A stretch of 60,036 nucleotides of DNA, counting the filler, from Hausera hauseri (taxonomy: Eukaryota): assembly GCA_046269625.1 (NCBI GenBank). It is 12 parts of 12 records of this genome, joined end to end, with 100 filler letters (N's around TTAATTAATTAA, not from the genome) between each part and the next. Parts side by side here need not be neighbours in the genome. Positions count along the whole stretch, not along the records: positions 51,189 to 55,281 come from JBJURY010767096.1; 11 more parts are not named here. One strand, written 5' to 3'. The notes below the pieces were generated by a model. The model worked only from the letters and a program-made list of their open reading frames with translations. It had not been told where the DNA came from and made no database searches. The position numbers were made by a program, and so were the translations under genes. Each line of letters begins with the position of its first letter. The first letter of the stretch is position 1. Shown here in pieces: positions 23,673 to 55,281 of this stretch.

Positions 23673-26220
23673 CAATGTAATGACAGTTGCCAATTTATTT
23701 TTATAATCACGATAATCTACGATTTTTGTTGAAATGTATACCATATTTCAGGACGGAGGGAGTAATACATTTTGGCAATTCGTGTCTCCTGTTACGCAGT
23801 ATTTATGATCATGTCTTTGTAAATGCTTTCATAGTTAGTGACCTTTTGGTGTTATTTTGCTTCCGATAAATTCTATGATTTGTTGTATGACTTTGTCCTT
23901 CTTTTGTTCGGCAAAAATTCTAAATGTTTTATCCATTGCCAGGACTTGTTGTCTATCCACTAATTCTTTGAGTTGAGCTTTTCGCATCATCCTAATCGCG
24001 CTTGTTTTGGTTTTGAGCCTTGATAACGCGTCAGCATCGACATGTTTGATTCCGGGTTTGTACTGAAATTCAAGATTATATCATGAGATCTCTTCGATCC
24101 ATCTGTTGAGTCTACATGTCGGATTGTTTGCTCTGCCTTTCAAGATTGTAACCGCTTTATGATTCGTAACAATTATAATCTTTTGTCCGTAGACGTATGC
24201 GTTAAAGTGTCGTAAAGCTTCTTTTACAGCTAACGTTTCTAATTCTGTAACAGAGTAATTCTTTTCAGTTTTCTTAAGTAATAGTCCTCCGTATGCGATC
24301 GGATTATCCAGTTCTTCGTCTTTTCGTTTTTGCACTAACTCGTACCCAATGCCTTCTTTGCTTGCATCCGTTTTAATTATGAACGGTATGTTAAAATCAG
24401 AATATCTTAAAACTGGTTCGCTAGTTAGGATTTTCTACATTTCGTCAAAAGCTTTCTGTTCAACGTCGGTACATTTCCATTTAATCCCTTTTTAAGTAAA
24501 CGATACAAAGGCGCGTTCATTTTTGAATTGTCTGGTACATAAGTGGCGTAATACCCACATAAACCTAACCAAGGTGTTAATTACATTTGATTCTGGGGTT
24601 CCATACAGTCTCATATTTTACTTAGCAGTGATTTATCTGGTTTTGATCCTCCTTCTCCGACTATATGTCCAAGATAAGATACAGCGTTTTGAACCCATTT
24701 GCATTTCTTTGGATTTAATTTCAATCCGGCTTGTTCTATCCGCATAAGTGTGTCCTCGATATGATTTAAATGTTATTCTTCCTTTTTCGATGTTATCACG
24801 GCGTCGTCTAGATAAGCAAATGCGTGTTTTAGTCCCATTAACATCTTATTCATCATTCGGGTAAAAATAGCTGGTCCCGTTGAATTCGTATACAGCGTCG
24901 TGCGTTTTAAACGCAGTTTTATAGCGGTCTTCTTCTTCTATCTCTACTTGCCAGTATTCACATTGTAAATCGAGTGTGGTGAACCATTTTGCTCCGGAAA
25001 GCCTATCTAGGGCTTCTTTTACCGATGATAGTGGAAATATATCTTTCATCATAAGTGTGTTTAACGCTCGATAATCGATACAAAATCGGTGCTTTGTAGT
25101 AACTTTCTCCTTAACCATGAGTATAGTGGAGTACCACGATCGGTAGCTCGGTCTAATTATGTCGGCCTTCAACATTCGTTCTACTTCTTTTGTTATCTCC
25201 GGTCTCAATGAGTGTGGAGGAGGATACCATTTCGGCATCTTCTGATCTGCTAAACCTATTTCATCATTGGTGCCAGGCTTTTCTTGAACGGAATTGTTAG
25301 CCTCAAGGCCTTGGCTCTGCCATTGTCTTCTTCGTCTTTATCGATAACTTAGTTATAACGGCAAAGTAATTCGTAAAATCGGCAGTATGACTCGGGCGAA
25401 AATTTAGTTTCAACATGAGGTGGAAATTCGGCACATTTGTAAGGTTTTTCTTTAATCATTATTTCCGATACTCTATAAGTATGCCCAAAGTTGTGTTAGC
25501 ATATAATCTAATCGGAATTGGTGCGTTATTAGCTATTCTATTGGGCATACGACCCGTCGATACTCTTGTTAATACGTTACTGAGCACAATGCTTGGATTT
25601 GACGATTCTCTTGGTTCGAAATACACTGGTTGGTCGTTATCCTGACGTATCTGAGAATATATTAATACTTTGGTTCTGGGTGAAATGTTCTCGTCTACTG
25701 GGATCCAAACTTCTCCGAATTGCCTAATCTTGGTAGTTTTAACCCCTTTTATCGGTCCAAGTTTTATTAATTTCCCTGCATGGACGTCTATGGCTACATT
25801 CGGTAGTTGTCGCAACAAATCGCATCCTAATACTACATCATCCGTCAATTGTTCCATTACTGAAAATTCGTGATGTAAAGATTGTACCATTATTCGTATT
25901 TCCGATCTCCATCGGAATTTGCTTTTCGACGATTGTCCAAAAGCTTCGACGTTTCCTAAGTCTGTTGCTGGAGGTCAGTATAATTGCTTTCGTAAAAGCT
26001 GCCGCATTGAATCATAGTTTATCAGGATATCTCAGATCCTGTGTCTATCAATGCGTAGACCTCCCAATCTTCTAGCTGGATTTTTGCAAAAGGCCTACCT
26101 TCGATTATCGTACCATAGTAATTTGGTGCTAATTTTTGGATGTCGTATGCTTGACACCTTGTAGCCGTTAATGGTAACTTCAGTGGTTCCAACCGGCTGA
26201 TCGATTAGTTGCCTTAACAC
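23673..26220 (-). pseudogene. pol: Ty3/gypsy protease-RT-RNase H (to the start of integrase)
   Basis: ALIDTGSEIS (DTG at 26037-26045), RFCIDYRALN, TLDLQ.EYWQV, FAYLDD, KTDAS, EKNYSVTELETLAV, DADALSR. Confidence 0.93.
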
Positions 26221-26686
26221 TCCAATTGGGTTTAACTCATTATTCGTACCATTTACATTTCCCGTTTCTTGACTTCGAACTGGCGACTGTGTTTCTTCGT
26301 TTCGGCCGTTCTGCGCTTCATGATCTCTTGAGAAATTGATCGCATTTCTTTTGGTCTGGGTACTCTAGGCAAATAAATTATACCGTATTCGTCGACTGCT
26401 GAACGACGATATGGGGCAGGCGTCCTTTTTATTTCGTGAACCTTACGTAATATACCATAGTGCTTTGCTCCTTCATAAGGATCCTGAAGGTTAAACAGTT
26501 TTCGACAAACATCTGTTAGATATAAACTCGTAGACTTTTTCTCACAGTCTTGGTATATGGATGCAGTTGTCAGTAATATTGGTAATGGCGGTTTTATAAC
26601 AGAGTAGCTTTTGTGTCTATTGGTCTTTGAGACGGCGTCTCGTCAATGTTATTCCTCTGTGTTTTGACATTTGTGAATTTATGTTT

Positions 26687-28737
26687 TTAATTAAAGATGT
26701 GTCTCTTTTTTCGTTTTCGATTATGGTAGCCAACATGTCGTTCTACATCCGCATTCCATCTACTTTCTTCATAAGCTTTTAGAAATTTTCCGAAAGGTGT
26801 GATAAAAACCGTTAAAATTTTGCATGAAAATCCCGTCAGGCTGAATATCTCATATCCGTTTATAATCACTTGAATTGTTGCTTTAACCACCTGAATTAAA
26901 AAGTAGATTGCTAGGAATCCTGATGCGGCTTGTCCGAATATCGGAAACCTTCCCCAAATTTTATACAATATTTCAGTAGTCACCTTTTGGTAGTAGTTAA
27001 CACCAAGTAACGATTCCCATTTCGCTTGATAACGCGAGTCTTCTAGTATTGTATGCACCGCTCTGTTTAATTCATGCGTCCGTTGGCGTGGAAAAGCAAG
27101 AAATTGTCTAAATGCTTCTACATCTTTCGGTCGATAAATACCTTTTGCGGCGGTATCTTGAAACTTATAGTAGGTTATTCCCTTTATCAAGTTTGTTCGC
27201 GTCAGTTTGGCGGGTGGCGCGATTATGCCACCGTTCAGTAAACTTACCCAATCGGTTTCGCTCTGTCGGAACATTGGCTCGCCTAGGCTGCTCGTGCAAT
27301 CTCTCATAATTGTCGGTTGAGTAGAGTTTGCCAACAATACTCTAGTAATTGGTGTTACTAATCTAGTAGGCTGTTCGACTACATCTTTTTGCGTTTTCGA
27401 GTTAGTATCTATTCTGCTCATGTAACGTTTTCTTGTCATCTCATTAAACTTACGTTCTTTGATCTTAATGAAATTGCAGTCAGTATTACAGCACGTCTTG
27501 ATATATCACTGGAAGTTCCTGTATACACCTCTTCTCTTCCACATTAATGGGTACATCCCTTTTTCATAAATCAGTAGAACTTCTCCAGTCACTCGGCTGA
27601 AAACGCCTTCTTTCATCGGAATTATTGGCGGCGCCATTTCGGGATTGGCATAGATTAAGGCCAACGTGGTTGTCATGACTTCTAAGTCTAATTTGCAGTC
27701 ATTTGTTATCATCTTGTGATATAACTCGACTACTACAGCCTGTCCCTTATAGTAGAAGTAGTCTTCTCTGTTCTTCAAATAATCCTCGATTCGGATATCT
27801 TGAGTATCCAGCTTGAACGTTTTGGCATTAATTTCAGTCTCAGCCACAAAGAATGCTTCATAGTTTGTGGCATAAATTACTACATCACATCATGCAAGTT
27901 CGTCCTTCTTTACGAATTTTAATCCATGAGTATCGGAGATTAATATGGTAGGTGTAGGCTGTTGGACTACATCTTTTCGCGTTTTTGAGCTAGTATCTAT
28001 GCTGTTCATGTAACGTTTTCCTGTCGTCCCATTAAACTTAAGTTCTTTGATCCTGATGAAATTGCAGTCAGTCTTGGCTGGTGGTTCCCAAATTACGACT
28101 GAACTTCTAAAAGCACAGGAGCCGTCTTAAATGTGACACTTTTGGTTTTCCGTATAGAGCTTAGTAACGCTATGAAACATTACTTTTTGTGTGGGCATCT
28201 CAATTTCGTAGAAATCCACAACCACTATGTTTGATTCCAATCCTTTTCCAGTATCGTATTCTGCACAGTTGCAGTGACCTGCTATTTTGTATGCTCTGAT
28301 TATTTTCCCTTGCTGCATTCCTAATTTCATGCTCTCCCATTTCAGCCTGCCTGTCTCTCTGGCCTGTTTATAGGGCTGCCGTTCTAAGTTCGTTGGAATT
28401 AACGGGGTCGTTGGCTTGATTATAAATGAATGCCAATGAATTAATTCACAATGGAAAATACTGCTAGAACGTCGTAACATGCATTCTATCCAATCCAATG
28501 AGACCAATTCTCGTTGCTGGTACAGCATATATCTCTTTTCTTTTTTTTTAATTTATGTGGTCTCGCATCTTTGCACATTTCCAAATACATCAATAAATAC
28601 CGTTGACCAAGCCTGAATTTATCACAGTCATATATTTTAACTGCTCCCATTTGCCGTATTAACATCATCACGGTCAGAAAATTAATTAGCCTGTTTGGTT
28701 CGTTTCCTCGATTATTTCCATTTAAGTTTCGTAACAT
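26687..28737 (-). pseudogene. env: Chuvirus-like (class III, gB-like) envelope glycoprotein
   Basis: Signal-like NFLTVMMLIRQMGA then IYDC; IECMLRRS..FHC..H; AG.C..AEY; LYHKMITNDCKL..EV...LAL...NPE; RVTGEVL; PITRVL; GIYRPKDVEAFRQFLAFP; KIWGRF..FGQAASGFLAIYFLIQVVK...NGYEIF. Collinear with the chuvirus glycoprotein pattern I recognise. Confidence 0.88.
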
Positions 28738-28824: not shown

Positions 28825-29841
28825 TCAGGGTAATTTCCTATCGGTCTTTCGTGCTAGACTATTGGCCTTGTTAAATTCATTTTCCCGGACTGGATTTGTT
28901 CTAATGGCCAAATATAATAATTCTTTCCGCAGCTCTTCTATGGTGTTCTCTACCATAATTTTCTCGATCACCAATTCATAGCTTAAGGTGCTTCTCGATA
29001 ATTTACAGCGGAAATTCTTCATTGTTCTGGCTGCATTCAATATAGATTTCTCCTTTTCGTCTAATATATCGCCACAGAGACTGGAGTGATTTGCTATGCG
29101 TATCAAATTTTTCATGAGTTCATTTAACTCTTCATTTTCCGTGTTAAAGGTCGATATGGACATTTGCCTTAATTCTCTAATTAAATCTCCATTATAGTCA
29201 ATTTCTTCTCGCATTTTCCGCGGTCTACCGACGGGACGCTTCTGTTTCGCTATTAATGACACGGTTTCACTAGGTGGTACTAAATTCTTATCAAACTGTT
29301 CTTTATCTTCATCTGTTTGTAAGTATTCGAAACACATTGTTGCGTCTCGAACGCCGATGACGCGTCCTACACACTGATCAGTTTTGGCCTTTTTTGTGGC
29401 TTGTTCCTTTGTTTCTTGCATAGCAAGCGTTACTACTATCCGATTTGTTTCACCTGAGATAATTCCGACGTCTATTAATAGTTCCAGTTCGTATGATATT
29501 CTACCTATAAAGTAAAATCTATAATTTTGTTCGCTTGCGCAACCATTACTTATTAGCCACTGTATCACGTCTCTTACGTAGGAGTGCGTAGTGAACTCGC
29601 GCTCTTTCTCGTCCATCCAGTCCGACGACATTCTTATTTTAATCGGCTCCTCGGTTTTAGCACTTAAGATTTCCGCATACTCCCTTATCAAAAGTTTTGG
29701 CACGGCACTATAAGTTGTACCTTCGCTAGATAGTTTAGTCAGGGTAGGAACTAACTTTCTTAACTGAATTTTTGTGAAGTTTACATTAATTAACTTAATT
29801 AAATCTTTCTCAGTTTGCACCGAGTCCCGAAGCATTTTCAC
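28825..29841 (-). CDS. Pre-env accessory domain with AT-hook-like GRPRK
   Basis: 338-aa ORF in frame with env across a single TGA. Shares GRPRK, EL...LI..AN and KSI...AR with 45384-46214. Confidence 0.65.
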   Translation of the reverse strand: MKMLRDSVQTEKDLIKLINVNFTKIQLRKLVPTLTKLSSEGTTYSAVPKLLIREYAEILSAKTEEPIKIRMSSDWMDEKEREFTTHSYVRDVIQWLISNGCASEQNYRFYFIGRISYELELLIDVGIISGETNRIVVTLAMQETKEQATKKAKTDQCVGRVIGVRDATMCFEYLQTDEDKEQFDKNLVPPSETVSLIAKQKRPVGRPRKMREEIDYNGDLIRELRQMSISTFNTENEELNELMKNLIRIANHSSLCGDILDEKEKSILNAARTMKNFRCKLSRSTLSYELVIEKIMVENTIEELRKELLYLAIRTNPVRENEFNKANSLARKTDRKLP

Positions 29842-32199
29842 ACCGAACCTCTGATCTGATAGACATGTATCTGTTTCTTACAATCGTACGAGAGTTTTCG
29901 GATTTTCAGCAACCATTGCGTTTAACATGCATCCCATTCTTGTTCACTTTCACTGTCCGGCGGTCGATAATCAATTGTCGAATTGTGCATCTACTGGTCT
30001 GGCCATATATTTAACCTGTATTGATCCNNNNNNNNNNNNNNNNNNNNNNNNNNNNNNNNNNNNNNNNNNNNTTAATTAATTAANNNNNNNNNNNNNNNNN
30101 NNNNNNNNNNNNNNNNNNNNNNNNNNNAGATGCAAACTGAGTCACTCAATTATATTATCAAAAACATCTTCAAACAATTTTTTAGACCTTTCCAGTGTTT
30201 CTACTAGACATATTGGCCTTGGGAGGGCTGCTTATGAAAACAGAATGATCAACAGCAGAAAAGTCACAAGTTTTTATTATTAGAGAGTCCAGCTTTGTTA
30301 AAAAACACAATTTACAGAACATTAAAAAGTCTGCAATTAGCATTAATTGAATCTTATAAAGTCTATCTCATATCTAAAGATACATTTAAGATATCTTGAA
30401 CTGGAGTCTCCATACAACTTAATGATAAATCAGATGTTATTTATACTATTCATGATGCCTCGAACACCTTGGTGTGGTCCATTCTGTCTGTCATAGTGAT
30501 TCTCCATATTAGATCTGAACTTCATTGTCGTTTCATTTGTTCCTCTACAAGTACTTTAACGATTTTCTTTAGATCTGTTCTTTGTCTTTCTATTGCATTC
30601 GTCTCTTGCATCTCTTCTGCATTCTGTGCGTGTACTTTCTGAGTCGTTTGTTAACTTTATACAGTCAATCACATTGAAGATTGTCTATTCTTTTGTTTGG
30701 GAAAAACATTCGCACCATAACTTTGTCGCCGAATGTCAATTTTTGTCTAATACAATTATTCTGTTTTGGGGGTCTTTTTTGAATTTTTCCAGCTGCTGTC
30801 TCAGTTTGGTGACATATTCACTCAGATTTCCCCCGCCCCATTTCTTTTCGAGATTTAACTATATCCTCATTCGTTTTGCAAATATCGTCTCGTTTGGCAT
30901 TGCAAACAACCTTTCTAAATAGTCGTTCAACATTTCTATCCTTTTGCTGGTATTTTCGGGAGGTCGTCTATTTCTGATTACTCAAAAATTATCTTGTTCT
31001 TGAATGAAATTCTTATATCGGAGTATATTATTCCTGGAATGCCGAATAACACAATCTACTTAGTAAATAACAATGTTGCAATATTTTCGTAGTTACGTTC
31101 TTTAGAGTGATTGACATCGGACGTTTTCAATAGTTGGCAAAGTAAAGAAGACTTTACTCGGCAAAGTCGGAGGATCGAAATCCTGAAGATCCCTTAGATT
31201 CTTGTCGCACATAAATCAAATTGAAGTCTAATCAGTTTTTAAAATGTATTTATTTTTATCCAATATTTAAGCAAATTAAAAATAAATAATAATTTACTTA
31301 TTATTTATTTTTGATGCTCCATTACTTTCCCCTCTCCTTTATGATCCTTGTTCACTCTTTTCAACCATTCCACTCTTCTACGAATTATTCTACCATCTTC
31401 CATGTTTTTCAACTCCCACTGATGCGGCGAAATTTGTTAAATTATTTGATACAGTCCTTCGAACTGATAAGCATTTTTTCTTTTTTTCTGAGGATCTACT
31501 TTCACGAAAACTTTTTGTCCAATTTCAAAATTTCGTTTCCTTCCCTTCGCCCCTTCGAAATGTTCCATTCGGTTAGCTGCTTCTGTAATATGTTTTTGTA
31601 ACACTGTCTGTCTTATGACTCCTCAATCCATAAAATTTTATCGTCTCTTCATTCTTCAAATTTTCATCCTCAGCACTTTCTGATTGTAGATGCAATATCC
31701 TGATGACATTATCTATGAACATTAATATTTTCATGGTTGTATGTTGGTCTGTACATTTATACATTGTTTCTGGCATTTTATGTCTACGTACTTGACTTTA
31801 TCCTTCAGGAGTTGAACAGTCTGATTGGTACTAACTATCAAGTCAGATGTTTTAAGATTTCCTTTCTATCTCTATATAGCAGAGTATCATCCGATTGTTA
31901 TTCATTTTGACGTACGGTGGGCCTATCACTTCATTTCTTAGTAATTCCCAATCATTTATTAATTCCCTTTAGAGATGATGCAGTTTTCTCTTGAAATACC
32001 TCATCGATTACTGATGGAACGGTTATCCCATTATATATGTGTATATAATTGTGTAAATTTGGTAGGATCCAATCATATATTTCAGTAACTTTTCGACGCG
32101 CATCAATAGTTAGCCGCAGTTCCCATTTTGTATTGCTTGGTTAATTAGGCAAAGCTAATACTGTCATTTGACGGATTTTTCGAACCTGATTATCTGTAT

Positions 32200-41267: not shown

Positions 41268-43250
41268 AGACAATACAGCAGAGACAAGTGTCATGAATAA
41301 TGATATAAGACTAGACAGAGTCGAAGAAAGAACTACACAAATAGAATAAAAGGTGAATGATAGTAATATAAGCTTAAATAAATTGGAAGAGAGAAGTTCT
41401 CAACTAGAACAAAACATAAATGCCCATTCCAGACAAATATATAATTTATGACAACAAACTATTGATCATATATTGGCAATACATAGAAATAGAGAACAGA
41501 TTGATAATAACGGGAGGCAAGTAAATCAAAGGTTAAATGGAATGCAAAATCAAGTAGCAATTATAGTATGTGAACAAGAACAAATACAGGTAGAAAATAG
41601 TCATACCAAAAACAAATAGAAACGTTAACTCGAGGTATAAATCAATTAAACGAACGTCTCGAACAAGTAAGGACAGAGGAAATGATAACTCAACGGCAAG
41701 AAGAAATACAATAACCAGAGTTTTCAGTAGAAGTAATTTCCATATCATGTGAAACCTCTGACACTAATAGCAACAACATGGAGCCGTCAAGGAATAACCG
41801 ACAGCCTTTGGCTCATCATCATGAACGCAATTATGATTTAAATAATAATGCCGGTTTCGACCTATTCAATGAAAGAAGAGAAGAGAAATACCAAATGTTA
41901 CCTCGCCGTCAACCATATGAAGGGCGAGTATCGGATTTGGAGGACTTTTTAGATGAATACTATTCACTAGCAAATGATATGCATTGGGATGACGCAAATA
42001 AAATATCTCTTTTACCAGTACATGTGAATAACGACCTGAGAATGGCAATAACCCGCCTACCTATGCGAATATATAAAACGTGGACGCAACATTGAGAAAG
42101 GATTCTACAAAATCAACAAGTTAATATACAAGAAAATCGATATATAAAATTCAAAAATTGTAAACAAAAACCAAATGAAGAAGTTTTGACATACATTAGT
42201 AGATTTAAAACAGCAATGAATAGATATTTTTGCCATAACAAACATGCATTTGGTGCCATGATCATGAAGCAATTTGTACTTTGACTCTTGCCACCCTTAC
42301 GAGGAGTTAAATTCCATACCGCCAATAATATCAATGAGTTGATAGAATATATCCGAAGAATGGCAACACGGATAGATGAAACACCCTTATGGGCTAATCA
42401 AACGCAAATTGCGACAGTAGCCACGACACCATTACTAGTAAGGCAAGATGTATCAAATCGTAGTAACGCACCTTGGAGAGACTCTTGGAGAAGCCAAAGT
42501 CCTAATCTGCTAGGCAACAATACACCACAGCGAAGCAATACTCCAGAAAGAGGAAGTTATAACCAATCATCTAAAAACTACAATAGTAACCAAAGAGATA
42601 CACAATATCAGCGAAATAGAAGAAACTACGATGATCAACAACGAAACGACCCAAGGTATGGTAGATCACGGGATAACTCAAGAGATAGCAGTAATAAGAG
42701 AAATCGATTGCCTAGTAGTGAACGGTACAACAATGGTCGAAATTCCAGTCGCTGTGAGAATAAAAACAGTCAAGTGAACTCATATTATAAACGAGATAAT
42801 AGCCGAACACGATGTCCAAATAATCGTTCGGAAGGATCAAGACTTAACTATTCCAACGATAGACGAAGCGAAAGTCGCGAGAGATTTAGAAGAAATGACA
42901 GTCGAGAAAGATATAGTAACTTCAATAGAAATAATAGCAGAGAAAGAGGTAATCGACGAGACAGTAACAGAGACAGGTTTAATCCTGGAAATGATAATAG
43001 AAATAGGTATAACGATTCAATATCGGGTCAATATGATAGAAAACGCGATTATACACCACCTCAACAAGATTTGGATAGGTACAATAAAAATCCCAGTCCA
43101 TATTCCCAAGGGACCAAAATCGAACCCCTTCTCAGAGACAAAATAACAAAAACGATAAATACACCCGACCGTCGGATTATAATTGTAGACGAAATGACTC
43201 ACCGATAAACAGAAACATTTCCCCACACAGATATGACAGAAATACGACAT
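41268..43250 (+). pseudogene. gag: Gag of the complex gypsy-like element: coiled coil, capsid-like domain, R/S/N/D-rich tail
   Basis: Heptad-like LDRVEERTTQIE...LNKLEERSSQLEQ; YEGRVSDLEDFLDEY..LA..MHWDD..KISLL; CKQKPNEEV.TYI.RF (MHR-like); long SRE/SRD-rich stretch; no CCHC knuckle seen. Confidence 0.78.
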
Positions 43251-43399
43251 CGAAATATCCTAAATATTCCAATTAAAGAAAGTTGGACTCAACAATATCA
43301 TCTTAGTTCCACAAAAGAAAAAGGTAACTCTTCAGACAATAGGAGAAGTAATAACGACGAAAGGAACGTTTCAACCCGTCGTTCAGTAACCTTCAATGA

Positions 43400-44950
43400 A
43401 CAAACTAAATCAGTTTTCACGGGTATATTAATGGCAAAATCTATAGTAGAACATCATCAAATCACATCTAAACCATTATTCAACAATTTTGTTCCAGAAA
43501 AACCCTTCATAACTAGAAATTAATTGGATCAAGCAGAAAGAAAAGTACCAAATATCCAAAATAATACTCTTCCATATATGTTATGGCCAGAAACTAAAGA
43601 AATAAAAAATTTGCTATTAACCTTTGTAGCTGTGGACAAAACTATTGGAGATGAACAGGAACCAGAAATCAATCAAATAAGAATAGAGAACATTGAAGGT
43701 GATTTGATAGTCGAATTAGAAAATATATATTTAGAAAAGGAAAAATGTTATGAAAACCTTAGACAACTACTGTGTGGAAAGCTTATAGTTGGAATAGATT
43801 TGCCATGGTTATTTAAACAAATACAATTGAAAGAAACGGATGTTTTTGGTGCGTTTAGTAATCAGAACTTCAACTTACCAAATGATCATTGGACAAGAGA
43901 AGGCACATTACCACAGCGAATAATCAACCTAGGACAAGAATATCGAATTAAACTTAACCGTCAGGGATCTCCATATTATATCTTTCCAAGCAGACCTTTG
44001 TTTAAAGATTACAAACATTCCCTACGAGAGATAACATGCAACACTACTTTGATCTCGGAAGCTACCTTACAGCGTATGGATACAGATATAGTTCAAAATT
44101 GGGATAAGATATTCGCTGACAAGAAATCTAACCGAATAGGATTTACAGATATTGCCGAACAAGGATCAATTTGTATGGAAGGTATTGATAAAGTCTATCT
44201 AAAAAGGACTGACATTCAAGTTAAAAGAAACGACCCCCATGTGTCATAATTACTAACCAAGAAGAAGCACGATTACGAATTGGTAACAAAACAGTAATAG
44301 TTTCCAAAGAAACTATGATATTTCCTAATTATTCTTACGAAGGAGATTGTCACATACAACCTTTAGATGATTGTCCGATATACTTAATACAATTGCTTAA
44401 GGAAACGCCTAAATTGATGGTGGACGAATCCTTAATGCAGGGTGAAGGAATAATTCTTACGGGTAGGTGCATAACCAAAGGAGATCAGAAAGGGCTTACA
44501 CAATTCACTGCTAAAAATTTGGAAGGAAAAACAATTCTCAATATTCATGTGTATCCGAACATACCAGATACTACAAAGTACACAGAATATAGTAGAAGAT
44601 CTAACCCTCAACGACAAGAGTCGGTAAGTGAATTCATGAATAGATATTTACCAGGGAAAGTGATCATCGGACGCCAGTTACCAGAACTATTAAGTACATT
44701 GAAAATAAACCCAGTAAATCTAACTGATATCTACGACCTGTAACAGATTAACATAACTTACAAGTGTTTAGACCTATATAACGGTTATAACTCGGAAATT
44801 ATGGCACAAAGATGTTTAGACGAATATATAAAGACAATACGAGTAAAATGCAAAATACCACGGATAATAAAAAGTCAGAAAACATTACGAATAGCTTTTC
44901 CAGCAATACAAAAACTCAAGAAAACTAAGGAAGCAAGAACAATTTCGGCA
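43400..44950 (+). pseudogene. Two tandem degenerate DEDDh/REX4-fold domains
   Basis: Unit 1: QIRIENIEGDLIV...LRQLLCGKLIVGIDL. Unit 2: QFTAKNLEGKTILNIHVYP...TKYTEYS...FMNRYLPGKVIIGRQL...LKI...DIYDL. Confidence 0.55.
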
Positions 44951-45383
44951 ATTGAACCAAAAGCTCAAAGACATCCGGATATGGATTCTAACGAATATTC
45001 ACACGAACTTGTTAGAATAAGACCAACGGGAGAATGGATAGAACCTTATAATGACAGATTAGTTACACCACTTTCACAACCAAAAGTTCCACCTCAACAA
45101 CCGACATTATTTGAGAGTATTTGGGATTCAATACACCCAAGTACATCCAAAAGGGAACCACCAGTAGTCGACGAAGATGAAGTGTTTGAAATCTTAAAAG
45201 ACGATGAACTAATACCTACACCGGATCTGATTCAGTACCCTGATACTACGCTAATACCAATCGTAAAACCAAAGATCATTCCAGAAATGAATATTCCACC
45301 AGGATTTATAGTGTATGGTGAACCTTCAGAATCAGTAACCGAAATAATTAAAGCTAAATTACAGATGGCTGATTCAGCGCCTA

Positions 45384-46340
45384 ATGATGTATGGAATGCT
45401 TTACGACAATGAGACACTACCATTAACTAGTCGAATAGAATGTGCGCCGTTACTCTTTCCATTAACAAAAGATGACGTATTCTGCTTTTTAGCCGCACGA
45501 AAGTTACTAAAAACTCTAGGAAGAGACCAAAGACGAAAATACCGAAGAAAACAACCTTATATTATAAGTGTAGAAATTAAAACCAATAAGCAAAAACAAG
45601 TAATTGAAGTAACAAAAGGAATGTTCACTAAATTTACAGATCTCCGAAGGAAGGTATTAGATGAATTAGATTTAGAAACTAATATAATAGCGAAAACTGA
45701 TGTCTATGGCAGATTAGCCGTCGACAATGATTATGTTGTAGATTATGGACTCCTTACCGAAAAGATTTATCAGATTACCATGGAATTTGACACCAAGAAA
45801 AAGGGAGGAAGACCTCGAAAATGTGATTTTAACCCAATAAGTGATGATGAAGAAAAGCCCGAAGAAGAAAAGCCAGAAAGGCAAAGAAAGAAAAGACCTT
45901 TGTCGCGGAAACGTAAGGAACAACGGGATACATTAGAACATATATTATATGATAATTTCCAACGATTCACTATTAGTGACGATGAAAATGAACCAACACA
46001 AAATCCAGTCCCGGGAACGTCAAACCAGAGTGAAATAAATGTACCAAAAGTAACACTGACGATTCAGGAACTTCTGCAACAGTTAATTAAGAAAGCTAAC
46101 CCAAAGCAACTTAACAAGATACCAACAATTACAAAAATTCCACTAAAGTCCATAATAGAAACGGCTAGAAACTTTTCATCACGATTACAAGATTACTACA
46201 AAAATGTAAACTGAAAGGTGGATTGAATAAAGCATTGACACGACTATTAAAGGCATGTGACCAAACCAAACAGAAGTTGACGCCAAGCTACATCATCTAG
46301 TAAAGGATCTAGCCCATCACATGGACAAACTAACGAAAGA
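45384..46340 (+). pseudogene. Pre-env accessory domain with AT-hook-like GRPRK
   Basis: KKGGRPRK, ELLQQLIKKAN, KSIIETARNF; homologous to 28825-29841. Confidence 0.6.
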
Positions 46341-46527
46341 ATGGGTAACCAAACAAGGCGTTTGGACGAAATCCTCAAGAAATGTAACCCTACAACACTA
46401 ATATTATTATATTTGATAGCCGTTAGTAGCCTAAAAACTACGAAGGCATTAGAAGCTTATGATTGTTCCAGACCAGAAATAACAGCCAGACTTTCACTGG
46501 TGGATATAGGTAAATGTCAAAACGCAA
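46341..46527 (+). CDS. env: N-terminus of chuvirus-like glycoprotein
   Basis: LILLYLIAVSSL...ALEAYDCSRPEITARLSLVDIGKC matches signal + YDC-x8-SL.D..EC. Truncated by the contig end. Confidence 0.82.
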
Positions 46528-51088: not shown

Positions 51089-51625
51089 NNNNNNNNNNNN
51101 NNNNNNNNNNNNNNNNNNNNNNNNNNNNNNNNTTAATTAATTAANNNNNNNNNNNNNNNNNNNNNNNNNNNNNNNNNNNNNNNNNNNNGGTACGGAACCC
51201 GTCGTTCCCGCCGTTGGCCTGGCTTGTTGCGTACAGCGCATTCTGTCTGCGCTGGAGGCTGGCGAATACACTGAGCTAGAGCGACAACGCGATGAGTTTG
51301 AAACGCGCCTTTTGGATTTAGGGTACGTCTCGATCGTTGGTGCCGATGCCCCTCGATTGCCACACACTTCCAATCTTTCCTTCAAAGGTGTTTAAATATA
51401 GCCGAGTTACTCAAAGCACAGTACGGCGTGTCACGTTTCCAGCGCGAGCGGTCAGAGTGACGGGACGCGGATGGTGGGACACAGGAACAAAGACCCCTGG
51501 GGTGCACGTGTGCACACAGCCGTAGGAATGACGAGAATGAAAAGCTACTTGAAACAGGAACAAAAAGTAGAGAAAAAGCTATTCAGGAAATCACTCACCA
51601 TGCATCTCAAGAAGAAATTGTCCCC

Positions 51626-53632
51626 GTGGTCATGGAAAAAATGACGAGTCAATTACAGGTGGAAATCCAGAAAAGCGATGGTGTAAAGGCCAATGGAATA
51701 TTTTTTCAATTTATGCTACTTTTATTGGTGTTATTTTCGGATTTTAAGAAGACTGGAACAATATTGGCTTATGATTGCAACCAAATATACGAAGGTAGCT
51801 ATTACTCATTGATGGATTTACAATAATGCCCAGATGCCCTTCCGAGGAAATTAGAGACTCAAACGCAGACTTTATATATTTATTATGATAAAACTATGTT
51901 ACACATAAAGGCATTGGAATGTTCTGTACGTATATCGCGTACTATTTCTCATTGCGGTCACCTACACTACGACTCGTACATTAAGCCAATTACCATACCC
52001 AAATGCGTGTCAGTAAATCCTGCATATTATAGAGATGCGGGAGAAACTCAAAAGTTGAAATGGGAAGATATTTTGCTCACAGCTATAAAAGGGCAAGTAA
52101 CCCAACAAGATAAATGGATCGCTGGTTATAAAGATGAAAAGGGAAATTGTAGAGGAGGAAATTTTGATACCCGAAAAGGTATTGAAGAAAGTATAGTAGT
52201 ACATGACCAGTACGAGGTCGAGATTAAGGATAATACCTAAATTTTTGAGACTTGTACAAATAAAATGGAAAACTTATCCTTTTGCAAGTTGCAAACGGAA
52301 CATTGTCATACTAGAACATCCACAATAGTATGGACACCTCCCATAAGTTATGATTGTACAATAGCACAAATCAGAAAAGGAGAATTCAGTGTCACTACCC
52401 AAAAAAACGCTATGCCCGTCACTATGAGTCTAATTTTGAGCATACCAATATTCAAGTTATTCCGGAAGTAAAAACTCCAAAAATTGTGATATATAAGGAT
52501 ATCAAAGGAGGAGTCTAATTTATACAACAAGACGCAATCACAAAATGATGACAACAAGTATATAATACTAATTACGATAATTATTTTATATTAGAAAGAG
52601 AGATAAAAGGTGCGGATAATGCTCCCACTAACAAAGCTTAGTTAGTAAATATTGCCAATTATATAGCAAATCGGGATGATTTTTGTTTTATCTAACTCAC
52701 AAAGCAATTGAAGAAATATATTCTGAGACCATTCAGAACTTTTGCAGAGTGAATCTTGAAACTTTGAGAAACCGTTTGGCTATCTATGCATCTAACCCAG
52801 AAATGATCACAATAACCCTTCCCTTTGGCGAAGGAATTCAGGGAAGAGTCCTAAGAGAAGTGCTATATACATACAAGTGCAAACGATTAGACCTACCCCT
52901 GATTACTGGTACTCCTTGCTACTCTGAGATACCTGTTAAGTATAATGAAGAAATCCGATACGTTCAGCCGATTACCCGAGTACTTCTATCACCACATAAA
53001 ATACCCACGGAAATTCAAAATTGTTCAGTACTAAATAAACCATTTATCAAGTACGACAATCAGGACCTTTGAATTAGATTACTGGATCGTGAAAGAGTTA
53101 AGAAAAGACCGAAGAATTTGACGATGGCGAATTTGAAACATGCAATTAAAAGCAATATGTTTACGGACGTGTCCAAATCCGCATTATACAGCAAAAAGAA
53201 ATGGGTTTATTCGTGAAGTTTTTAGCATACCCTCGACAGAGAGAGCAAATAGTAAATCGCGGAATACACCGAGAAATCGATGACAAAGCCGTAGAAGGAA
53301 AATGGGACCGCTTATGGACACCTGAGGCCTATACTAAAATCGATTCAAATCTGTGGTATAAAATGTGAGGCAGATTCCTGAGATTTGGTCAAGTAGCCTC
53401 TAGGTTAATGGTCATATACTTCATTATACAGACTTTCAAAATCTGTATCAATTCCGTATTAAATGCATATAAGATTTAGAACTTAAAGGGACAACCTCCA
53501 AGCATAATAGGTGCTCTATTTTCCCCAATTGGTAAATTCATTAAAGTTTACCATAAGAAACAATGGCGAGGTAAACTAGAAAAACATGTTGATTATAAAT
53601 CGAAGAAGCTTTTTCCAAAGGACACCCCGTAA
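51626..53632 (+). pseudogene. env: Chuvirus-like (class III, gB-like) envelope glycoprotein
   Basis: FMLLLLVLF...LAYDC...YSLMDL..C; LECSVRISRTISHCGHLHY; AG..DEKGNCRGG; IYSETIQNFCRVN.ETLRN.LAI...NPE; EVLYTYKC; CYSEIPV; PITRVL; FLAYPRQRE; GRFLRFGQVAS..MVIYFII. Confidence 0.88.
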
Positions 53633-53902
53633 AGTTCCGATAAAGACAACGCCCCTGGATATTATCCTACCACAGGGACTACAAAGCACACGAAAGGGAA
53701 ATTTAGGTTTATGAAACCAAAGGAGAAAAATATACCCAAATCTCTTGCTGTGCCATATGAGAATAAAACCGTGCCCATTTGTAGATTACCAATATTAACA
53801 GACCTAAATGATCCGTATGGAAAAATGGAGGAGTATATAAAACTATGTAACTTACCAAAATATTCTCAGGAAGACATACGTTAATCCTTTATTATACGAA
53901 AC

Positions 53903-55281
53903 ATGGAAAGCAACCGTGTAACATTACCTACATCACATAAGATATGTACACTGCCACCTACACCTTATCATCAAACAAACCGATTAATGAAAGATCAAGT
54001 AGATAGAGAACCCAATTTAACGACCTCAGCATCCGTTAGTAGGCAAAACGCAACATTCCAACGTGTAAGTTGCTACATAGACCTGACTGAACTCAAAGAG
54101 GAAGTGAATGGAGTGGAAAACAATACCCAGTCTTTGCAAAGTTTAACCGTTTTATTATCAAGCGGCACTACCCGATATTGTTCAACTAGTTACAGCTTGA
54201 TGGAACCACATATAGATAATCACAACGATGTATTAACGTTTCTCGAGCTGTTACGCGATAATCGACCTCACATCGGAGTTCACTTTTATAGCTTTGACCT
54301 GAATGTTATGGTTGACACTGGCGCTAACGTTGCATTAATAGCAAAACATGTCATTCCAGAAGAATTGCAATTTCAAATAAAATTGGCTACTAAAGACTCA
54401 CCTGGTACTACTTCGGCTTTCCAGCAATGCAGTAAACCTTATGCATACTGGAAAAGTGAACTTTGGATTTGTGGACAGAAAGTCATGATAACTTTTGATG
54501 TAATGGTTACCATAGATCCGCGATGCATTTTGGGTATGAATGTGTTGCGAAAATTGGAAGGATTACACATAAACTTACAATCAGGATCAATTTGTCGAAA
54601 TATTGATAATAAACCCCCTAATTACAACAAAACAGACATCTGAGTAGAACATGTTGAGAAAATGCTACCCAATTCTAGAATGGTTATACATGCCAGAACA
54701 ATATTCCCAGACAACAGTGTAATTGACTTTGTGCCGAAAACTCTTCGAAATGAGCTTATATTACCACATTACTGCGTTAAAGTAATTGGAGGTACCATTC
54801 CCGTAGAAGTTCTAAATCTCTCTCCAAGATTTGTCACGATATTCACTAAAACAAAAATTGGACAGACATTGGAAACTACAGGCCAAGAAAAATACGATAA
54901 CAAAGTTGCGGCCATCTCCACAGCCGAACATGCTAATGTTGAAGACACACTTAATGTCATTCTTACTAAAGTCAAGCAGATTTTATCAGATAAATATCTA
55001 AGGAATTTCTCAAACCTCATTTGTCAGTACCTTGATACTTTGCAAAAAAAGAAACGGATATCAGACGAACAGATTTTGTCGAATTTAGATTGTCGTTTAT
55101 GCTCGACCTCACAACCGGAAAGGAGATAGATCTATTACGACAACCTATACCAAAATGGTACCCTCCTCCAAAAGCACGCCAAAGGGAAGTTGAGGAACAA
55201 ATTCAGGCAATGCTCGATAAGGGTATCATAGAATTAAGTCAATCACCATGGCTTCTCCCATAGTTATGGCCAGGAAAGCTA
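53903..55281 (+). pseudogene. pol: Aspartic protease, PR-RT spacer and start of RT
   Basis: VMVDTGANVALI (DTG at 54314), ILGMNVL, then PKWYPPP...EVEEQIQAMLDKGII..SQSPW. Confidence 0.88.

Follow-up and report, generated by a model that had tools for sequence, protein, structure and literature searches.

Decayed Ty3/gypsy copies in Hausera hauseri and their unbroken relatives point to an Env lying in frame between Gag and Pol

Three contigs of the Hausera hauseri assembly carry decayed copies of three Ty3/gypsy families in which an Env resembling those of chuviruses and herpesvirus gB lies upstream of the protease. Together with their unbroken relatives, these copies indicate that Gag, an accessory region, Env and Pol were very probably encoded in a single frame. 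The original prediction of such a Gag-accessory-Env-Pol layout is supported, more by the unbroken relatives than by the copies in the window, none of which spans Gag to Pol. The window, the whole stretch of 60,036 nucleotides that was analysed, is made up of 12 contigs, each 4.0-6.4 kb long, with runs of N between them, and the contigs end inside elements; it is partly eukaryotic and holds many decayed retroelements. The three copies, C11 (51189-55281; JBJURY010767096.1), C6 (23673-30027, minus strand) and C9 (41268-46527), display no mutual DNA similarity (at E 1e-5) and therefore represent three families rather than copies of one. A further contig, C10, is a sister of C6 (71% DNA identity over 2.4 kb). 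The Pol order protease-RT-RNase H-integrase is complete in C10 and in the relatives, while C6 retains protease-RT-RNase H and C11 the protease followed by the start of RT; the closest full-length proteins found share 32-37% identity with the C6/C10 Pol over RNase H-integrase. In both C6 and C11 Env precedes the protease and does not follow the integrase. No Gag was seen in C11 or C6, and the evidence for a capsid consists of a PF03732 match in C9 that lies under the Pfam cut-off and weak Gag matches in the relatives P0005, P0015 and P0019. The features of the three copies are listed in Table 1.

Table 1. Coordinates of the features of C11, C6 and C9 (positions along the window)
Feature	Position	Strand	Evidence
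C11 leader in Env frame, stop-free, upstream of signal	51461..51679	+	0 stops in 85 codons; weak alone (73/2000 shuffles)
C11 internal signal-like segment	51680..51769	+	Kyte-Doolittle 1.85 over 19 aa; small residue at -1 before YDC (51770); -3/-1 residues as in 10 relatives
C11 Env, predicted class III (chuvirus G / herpes gB-like), broken	51770..53638	+	PF24664 in three pieces, E 4e-16, 2e-18, 4e-12; collinear with relatives; cysteine spacing like relatives
C11 Env membrane anchor	53405..53461	+	Kyte-Doolittle 1.83 vs 0.90 for second, weaker amphipathic segment; 8 K/R in next 20 aa
C11 coding linker between Env and protease, Env frame, no known domain	53639..54256	+	Stops 1 vs 17 and 14; 0/2000 shuffles
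C11 aspartyl protease, catalytic DTG	54257..54562	+	PF00077, E 3e-6
C11 post-protease region and RT start at contig end	54563..55281	+	Relatives align up to 54892; RT start by eye from likeness to C6, C10
C6 accessory ORF, 350 codons, no known family, in frame with Env signal	28825..29877	-	Stop counts; no Pfam match
C6 signal-like segment, YDC (28632), Env	26687..28689	-	PF24664 E 1e-16 and 9e-23; frame change near 28545; internal 122-base duplication
C6 frameshifted linker, protease, RT, RNase H	23784..26686	-	Protease and RT/RNase H matches; 71% DNA identity to C10
C9 Gag-like start and ~1300 codons of accessory region, broken by stops and five frame changes	41715..46394	+	PF03732 E 3e-4; P0054 collinear at 45-72% identity
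C9 Env signal-like segment, YDC (46458), first Env residues, cut by contig end	46395..46527	+	PF24664 E 0.0025 (last 41 codons); 56% identical to P0054 Env start

The frame that encodes Env in C11 can be followed into Pol. Between 53252 and 55129 it contains 6 stops, including the terminal one, compared with 44 and 52 in the other two frames, and none of 2000 shuffles was as good. The 206 codons that separate the end of the Env match from the protease are, because of their stop counts and shuffles, coding and in the Env frame. The original prediction had the Env tail running into the protease across two isolated stops, at 53630 and 53882. Both stops and the continuation into the PF00077 domain are present, but two further stops (53366 and 53477), which flank the region of the membrane anchor, and three frame changes within Env (near 52400, 52685 and 53200) had been overlooked. 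The single TGA of the original prediction is at 54641, giving five internal stops in the Env frame; three unbroken relatives align across this last codon. A hidden second protease in the linker was considered and rejected, as a profile of 17 protease domains from relatives recovered only the known one.

In C6 the proposed passage of the accessory ORF (29877-28825), in frame and across one TGA, into a hydrophobic segment and YDC was confirmed. The stretch from ORF to YDC carries 2 stops in 464 codons, compared with 48 and 46 in the other frames (0/2000 shuffles), although the 80 codons around the TGA are, taken alone, weakly stop-poor (95/2000 shuffles). The ORF returned no Pfam match and no usable Atlas match. 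From the Env tail to the protease C6 is not one frame, the best having 8 stops in 233 codons (225/2000 shuffles). Two segments inside its Env (27366-27487 and 27954-28075) form the 122-base duplication, 89% identical, which is apparently damage specific to this copy. With respect to the fold of the protein, PF24664, to which pieces of both C11 and C6 match at E 4e-12 to 9e-23, is a Monjiviricetes fusion glycoprotein family. A structural model of C6 Env (349 residues with X at stops, built from 53 sequences; pLDDT 84.8) was compared by Foldseek with solved structures, where the best match was pseudorabies gB (E 2e-9, TM 0.42), and with viral models, where the best matches were chuvirus-type G proteins (TM 0.70-0.72; best E 8e-17, TM 0.72). 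The Env of these elements is thus predicted to be a class III protein with a gB-like fold.

The front of the element is seen in C9. Its four ORFs beginning at 41778, 42288, 43233 and 43524 do share one frame, as had been claimed, with 5 stops in 845 codons compared with 52 and 105 (0/2000 shuffles). Continuity of that frame as far as Env did not hold in this copy: ORF 43524 is separated from the Env signal by five frame changes, and no single frame is stop-poor over the last 125 codons (606/2000 shuffles as good). The relative P0054, an unbroken chain of 1963 aa, aligns to C9 42549-46526 in six collinear pieces at 45-72% identity; 1351 of its first 1388 residues are covered on C9, and the chain then continues through Env. 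Residues of P0054 stand opposite the C9 stops at 43521, 44247 and 44741, with 43206 falling in an alignment gap, and P0019 spans the two Gag stops of C9 in a weak alignment (24%, E 5e-6).

When the intact tail of the C6 Env was searched against 1.84 billion proteins, 198 matches were obtained. Among the best 12 of these (P0009-P0020), in 10 the chain continues from Env into a protease, and the remaining two stop no later than the Env anchor. Fifteen long proteins (14 of the 150 listed, and P0005) and three cluster members were scanned. P0005 (2973 aa) has the order capsid-Env-proteases-RT-RNase H-integrase (Ty3 capsid, E 8e-6), P0019/P0161 read Gag-Env-protease (PF03732, E 2e-4), P0015 zinc knuckle-Env-proteases, and P0010, P0016, P0159 and P0163 leader-Env-protease-RT-integrase; the Gag matches of these relatives lie below the Pfam cut-offs. 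Three lower matches are of other kinds, with DUF5641 before Env in P0033, Ig domains in P0088 and Env first in P0125. The relatives are probably free of introns, judging from how little space their contigs have to spare (for example, 2973 aa on 10,266 bases) and from the collinearity of P0054 with C9. DNA of the relatives was searched for in viral and metagenome contigs and none was confirmed, and a word-based search with the C11 tail against proteins of 1097-3130 aa yielded 0 of 3843 candidates. The source record of P0010 is labelled bacterial; probably it is a misplaced eukaryotic contig whose annotation assumed no introns. In a tree of 13 rows, which holds no named references, C6/C10 form a long branch that is separate from all but one of the six relatives with Env in frame, at a fork that is not starred, and the six are grouped in just 3% of bootstrap trees, which may agree, weakly, with the published lack of a single clade. 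Nine of 13 scanned relatives (P0005, P0009, P0011, P0012, P0015, P0016, P0019, P0159 and P0163) have between 2 and 7 protease domains, almost all of them bearing the catalytic DTG/DSG and some placed after the integrase, where the window copies show one; a literature search for tandem proteases in gypsy elements found nothing relevant.

The membrane readings use Kyte-Doolittle (KD) hydropathy, -1/-3 residues and charge bias, which are heuristic, and insertion energies, which are only a rough guide. The hydrophobic stretch said to precede YDC in each Env is present in C11, C6 and C9, ending 4-10 residues before the motif. In 10/10 relatives with Y/FDC the hydrophobic core ends 7-10 residues before the motif, with Ala or Gly at -1; C11 and C9 fit this pattern, and C6, whose signal is weak (KD15 1.37, Ile at -1), fits less well. 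The core lies 149-1365 residues into the chain of these ten proteins, and by these features the leaders resemble internal signals that can be cleaved. In the relatives, 5-81 residues separate the core from the closest Met upstream (at least 46 in 5/10), and because of this variation there is no conserved start belonging to Env itself. C11, C6 and C9 each have a Met 16-18 codons before the signal, that of C9 being in a frameshifted stretch. At the other end of Env, two tail segments are seen in 12/12 rows, the first with KD 1.8-2.4 and the second with 0.9-1.7, mostly followed by basic residues. The second reaches 1.55-1.71 in C6, P0014 and P0019, which is borderline for another crossing. On these values the tail appears more like one membrane crossing than two, and an internal signal with a single crossing agrees with the hydropathy, the -1/-3 residues and the charge bias. 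Budding motifs in the Env tail are scattered and of differing types in 10/13 rows, with none in 3, and were not counted as evidence.

It is likely, from these sequence features, that active forms of the elements made one polyprotein, with predicted passage across the ER membrane and predicted cleavage by both the signal peptidase of the host and the element protease. Synthesis of Gag and the accessory part would take place in the cytosol. An internal signal, provided by the hydrophobic stretch that precedes YDC and cleaved directly ahead of that motif, would then send the Env ectodomain into the lumen, and a single stop-transfer helix would bring the chain back to the cytosolic side. There, protease-RT-RNase H-integrase would stay attached to the Env tail until the protease released them. 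Gag, Env and Pol would be produced in equal numbers and assembly would be placed on the membrane, for which the structural polyproteins of flaviviruses and alphaviruses offer an analogy.

The internal stops of C11 bear directly on this model. Copies were compared in one public run, X1, that contains the C11 family, with 3080 contigs aligned. At 53882 7/7 X1 contigs, and at 53630 seven contigs (89 of 113 in depth), read otherwise than the C11 stop, and X1 contigs vary in length at 52399-52401 and 52679, which are two of the C11 Env frame changes. The expectation that the stops would prove copy-specific is therefore borne out for two of the five, 53630 and 53882; 54641 falls outside the 40 of 798 rows listed for X1. 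At 53366 and 53477 no alternative letter reaches 55% among the X1 contigs, as might be seen if the C11 family shared a stop near the Env anchor that was either read through or marked a defective, amplified sub-lineage making secreted Env and no Pol. Such sharing is highly improbable, given that the neighbouring stops at 53630 and 53882 are not shared and that unbroken relatives align across both codons; the blank in X1 is itself weak because the comparison omits differences near contig ends and counts each letter separately. Readthrough by a reassigned code was rejected since no consistent residue stands opposite the stop codons: the 15 TGA, 5 TAG and 12 TAA sites within alignments are matched by a wide variety of residues, and where Trp is conserved the codon is TGG 20 times and TGA once. 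TAA stands opposite Glu or Gln at 8/12 sites, a result that single-base decay would give likewise, and of seven C6 stops one is common to C10. The first 270 bases of C11 (51189-51460; 48-62% G+C) have no cover in X1 and probably either do not belong to the element or represent a chimeric end of the contig; within them, a frame of 67 codons has no match in Pfam or the PDB.

Two other readings keep the frame continuous and differ in how Pol or Env would be obtained from it. If the Env tail crossed the membrane twice, Pol would lie in the lumen and working Pol could come only from chains missing the internal signal, a topology brought into view by the second, moderately hydrophobic segment behind the anchor of C6, C11 and 10 relatives. 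There is scarcely any likelihood of this, as that segment is always weaker than the first, usually contains Lys/Arg and Pro, is followed by basic residues (the positive-inside rule) and is absent from P0005. It also often includes a Cys-Cys-Pro or Cys-Pro motif, of a type that receives lipid on the cytosolic face of the membrane. An additional spliced or subgenomic RNA is the source of Env in Drosophila gypsy and of Gag in copia, and most Env (or Gag) of the present elements could similarly derive from such an RNA, leaving the full polyprotein a minor product. Equal amounts of Gag and Pol would be unusual for particle assembly, and the Met 16-18 codons before the signal in each window copy, with one within 17 in 5/10 relatives, could serve such a transcript. 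The other 5/10 relatives, however, lack a Met within 45 residues, and leaders of 126-1340 residues are open in 10/10, so that translation through the leaders is needed; we regard an extra RNA as the main source of Env or Gag as unlikely.

An elaboration of the single threaded polyprotein is offered more tentatively, and is doubtful as it stands. The elements might be enveloped, with a single chain yielding two surface proteins, one being the gB-like fusion protein ahead of the protease and the other a protein with signal peptide and membrane segment after the integrase; Env trimers might cluster the tethered proteases in the ER and so trigger maturation, and the 2-7 proteases of the relatives might cut separate membrane-bound junctions. 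The second membrane protein and the multiple proteases are seen in relatives and not in C11, C6 or C9. A signal and membrane-anchored protein of 300-400 aa follows the integrase in P0010, P0016, P0159 and P0163 and not in P0005, that is, in four of the five relatives complete to integrase. In C10 (46628-47380, minus strand), a frame change behind the integrase is followed by a stretch of 230 codons that contains 3 stops and begins with a segment resembling a signal peptide (47308, KD 1.72); by eye this stretch has fibronectin-III-like spacing, and it gave no Pfam match and no significant pairwise similarity.

Other contigs of the window contain further elements and gene pieces. C1 (1-4244) and C8 (35069-41167) are two copies of gypsy Pol that share 84% identity, show a strong G/C skew and stand far from C6/C10, and no Env match was seen in either. 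C2 and C3 (4345-14056), 80% identical, carry TBP-like domains (E 4e-9 and 1e-5), accompanied by a MATH domain in C2 and by a dUTPase and an integrase fragment on the opposite strand in C3; a TBP-like domain carried by a repeated element would be unusual. C5 (18933-23572, minus strand) presents a one-strand series of ORFs in which a RING finger (20237-20557, E 3e-6) and a membrane segment (22647) occur, the last ORF being cut by the contig end; the series may represent the front, accessory portion of a large element. An exon-like CAP-Gly domain in C12 (56685-56819, plus strand; E 2e-19) is a piece of a host gene.

Nematode NERVs reportedly consist of one continuous gag-env-pro-pol ORF, in work from 2022 attributed to Sacco et al. 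In the planarian giant gypsy-like elements Burro / GYPSM1, Env lies in frame between gag and pol within one polyprotein, with accessory domains between, an arrangement called there the first such case (Arkhipova and Yushenova 2019; PMC6431247); no single copy in the window shows all of these parts. The Burro Env is described as matching fusion proteins of arthropod and fish mononegaviruses, and decayed copies with stops and frameshifts are also described (PMC6431247). By contrast, the accessory regions of C6 and C9 have no BCL2, MATH, BIR or ankyrin Pfam match, although P0013 contains a weak Bcl-2 match before Env (E 1e-3) and P0159 an ankyrin match; the MATH, RING and dUTPase domains in other window contigs recall Burro cargo. 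Compared by description only, Burro exceeds 30 kb and has long LTRs, whereas the contigs here are short, with no LTRs or full length seen. Errantiviruses of the HSV/gB type, with the order GAG-ENV-POL, occur in Nematoda, Bryozoa and Platyhelminthes and do not form one clade (Chary and Hayashi, eLife, PMC13524379). They resemble the present elements in having Env upstream of Pol, a gB-like Env and an ectodomain with a signal or first membrane segment on one side and an anchor on the other, and differ in being intact where C11, C6 and C9 are broken (PMC13524379). By eye, the cysteine and motif spacing of C11 Env resembles the Schmidtea rows of supplement 2 of that paper, while six short Schmidtea motifs had no exact match in the relatives. 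In the sections of PMC13524379 compared here, a single frame or processing is not discussed; its figure supplements on ORF layout may already show a single frame, and it cites nematode NERVs as having Env before Pol. Atlas virus and nematode belpaoviruses share one Gag-Pol-Env polyprotein, internal membrane segments and a fusion protein captured from an RNA virus, and differ in being BEL/Pao elements with a class II, phlebovirus-like Env that comes last (PMC9094657). Since Env is last, their Pol needs no return across the membrane.

The layout with Env in frame is thus already published, as far as the sources describe it (PMC6431247, PMC13524379), and C11, C6 and C9 add three more divergent families. 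A literature search on the processing of such Env-before-Pol polyproteins found nothing relevant, and processing represents a testable gap, for which the broken window copies are poor material and the unbroken relatives better. Placing the enzymes behind a membrane-anchored fusion protein would mean that ER targeting, the Gag:Pol ratio and the timing of the protease are solved in a manner unlike that of retroviruses and insect errantiviruses.
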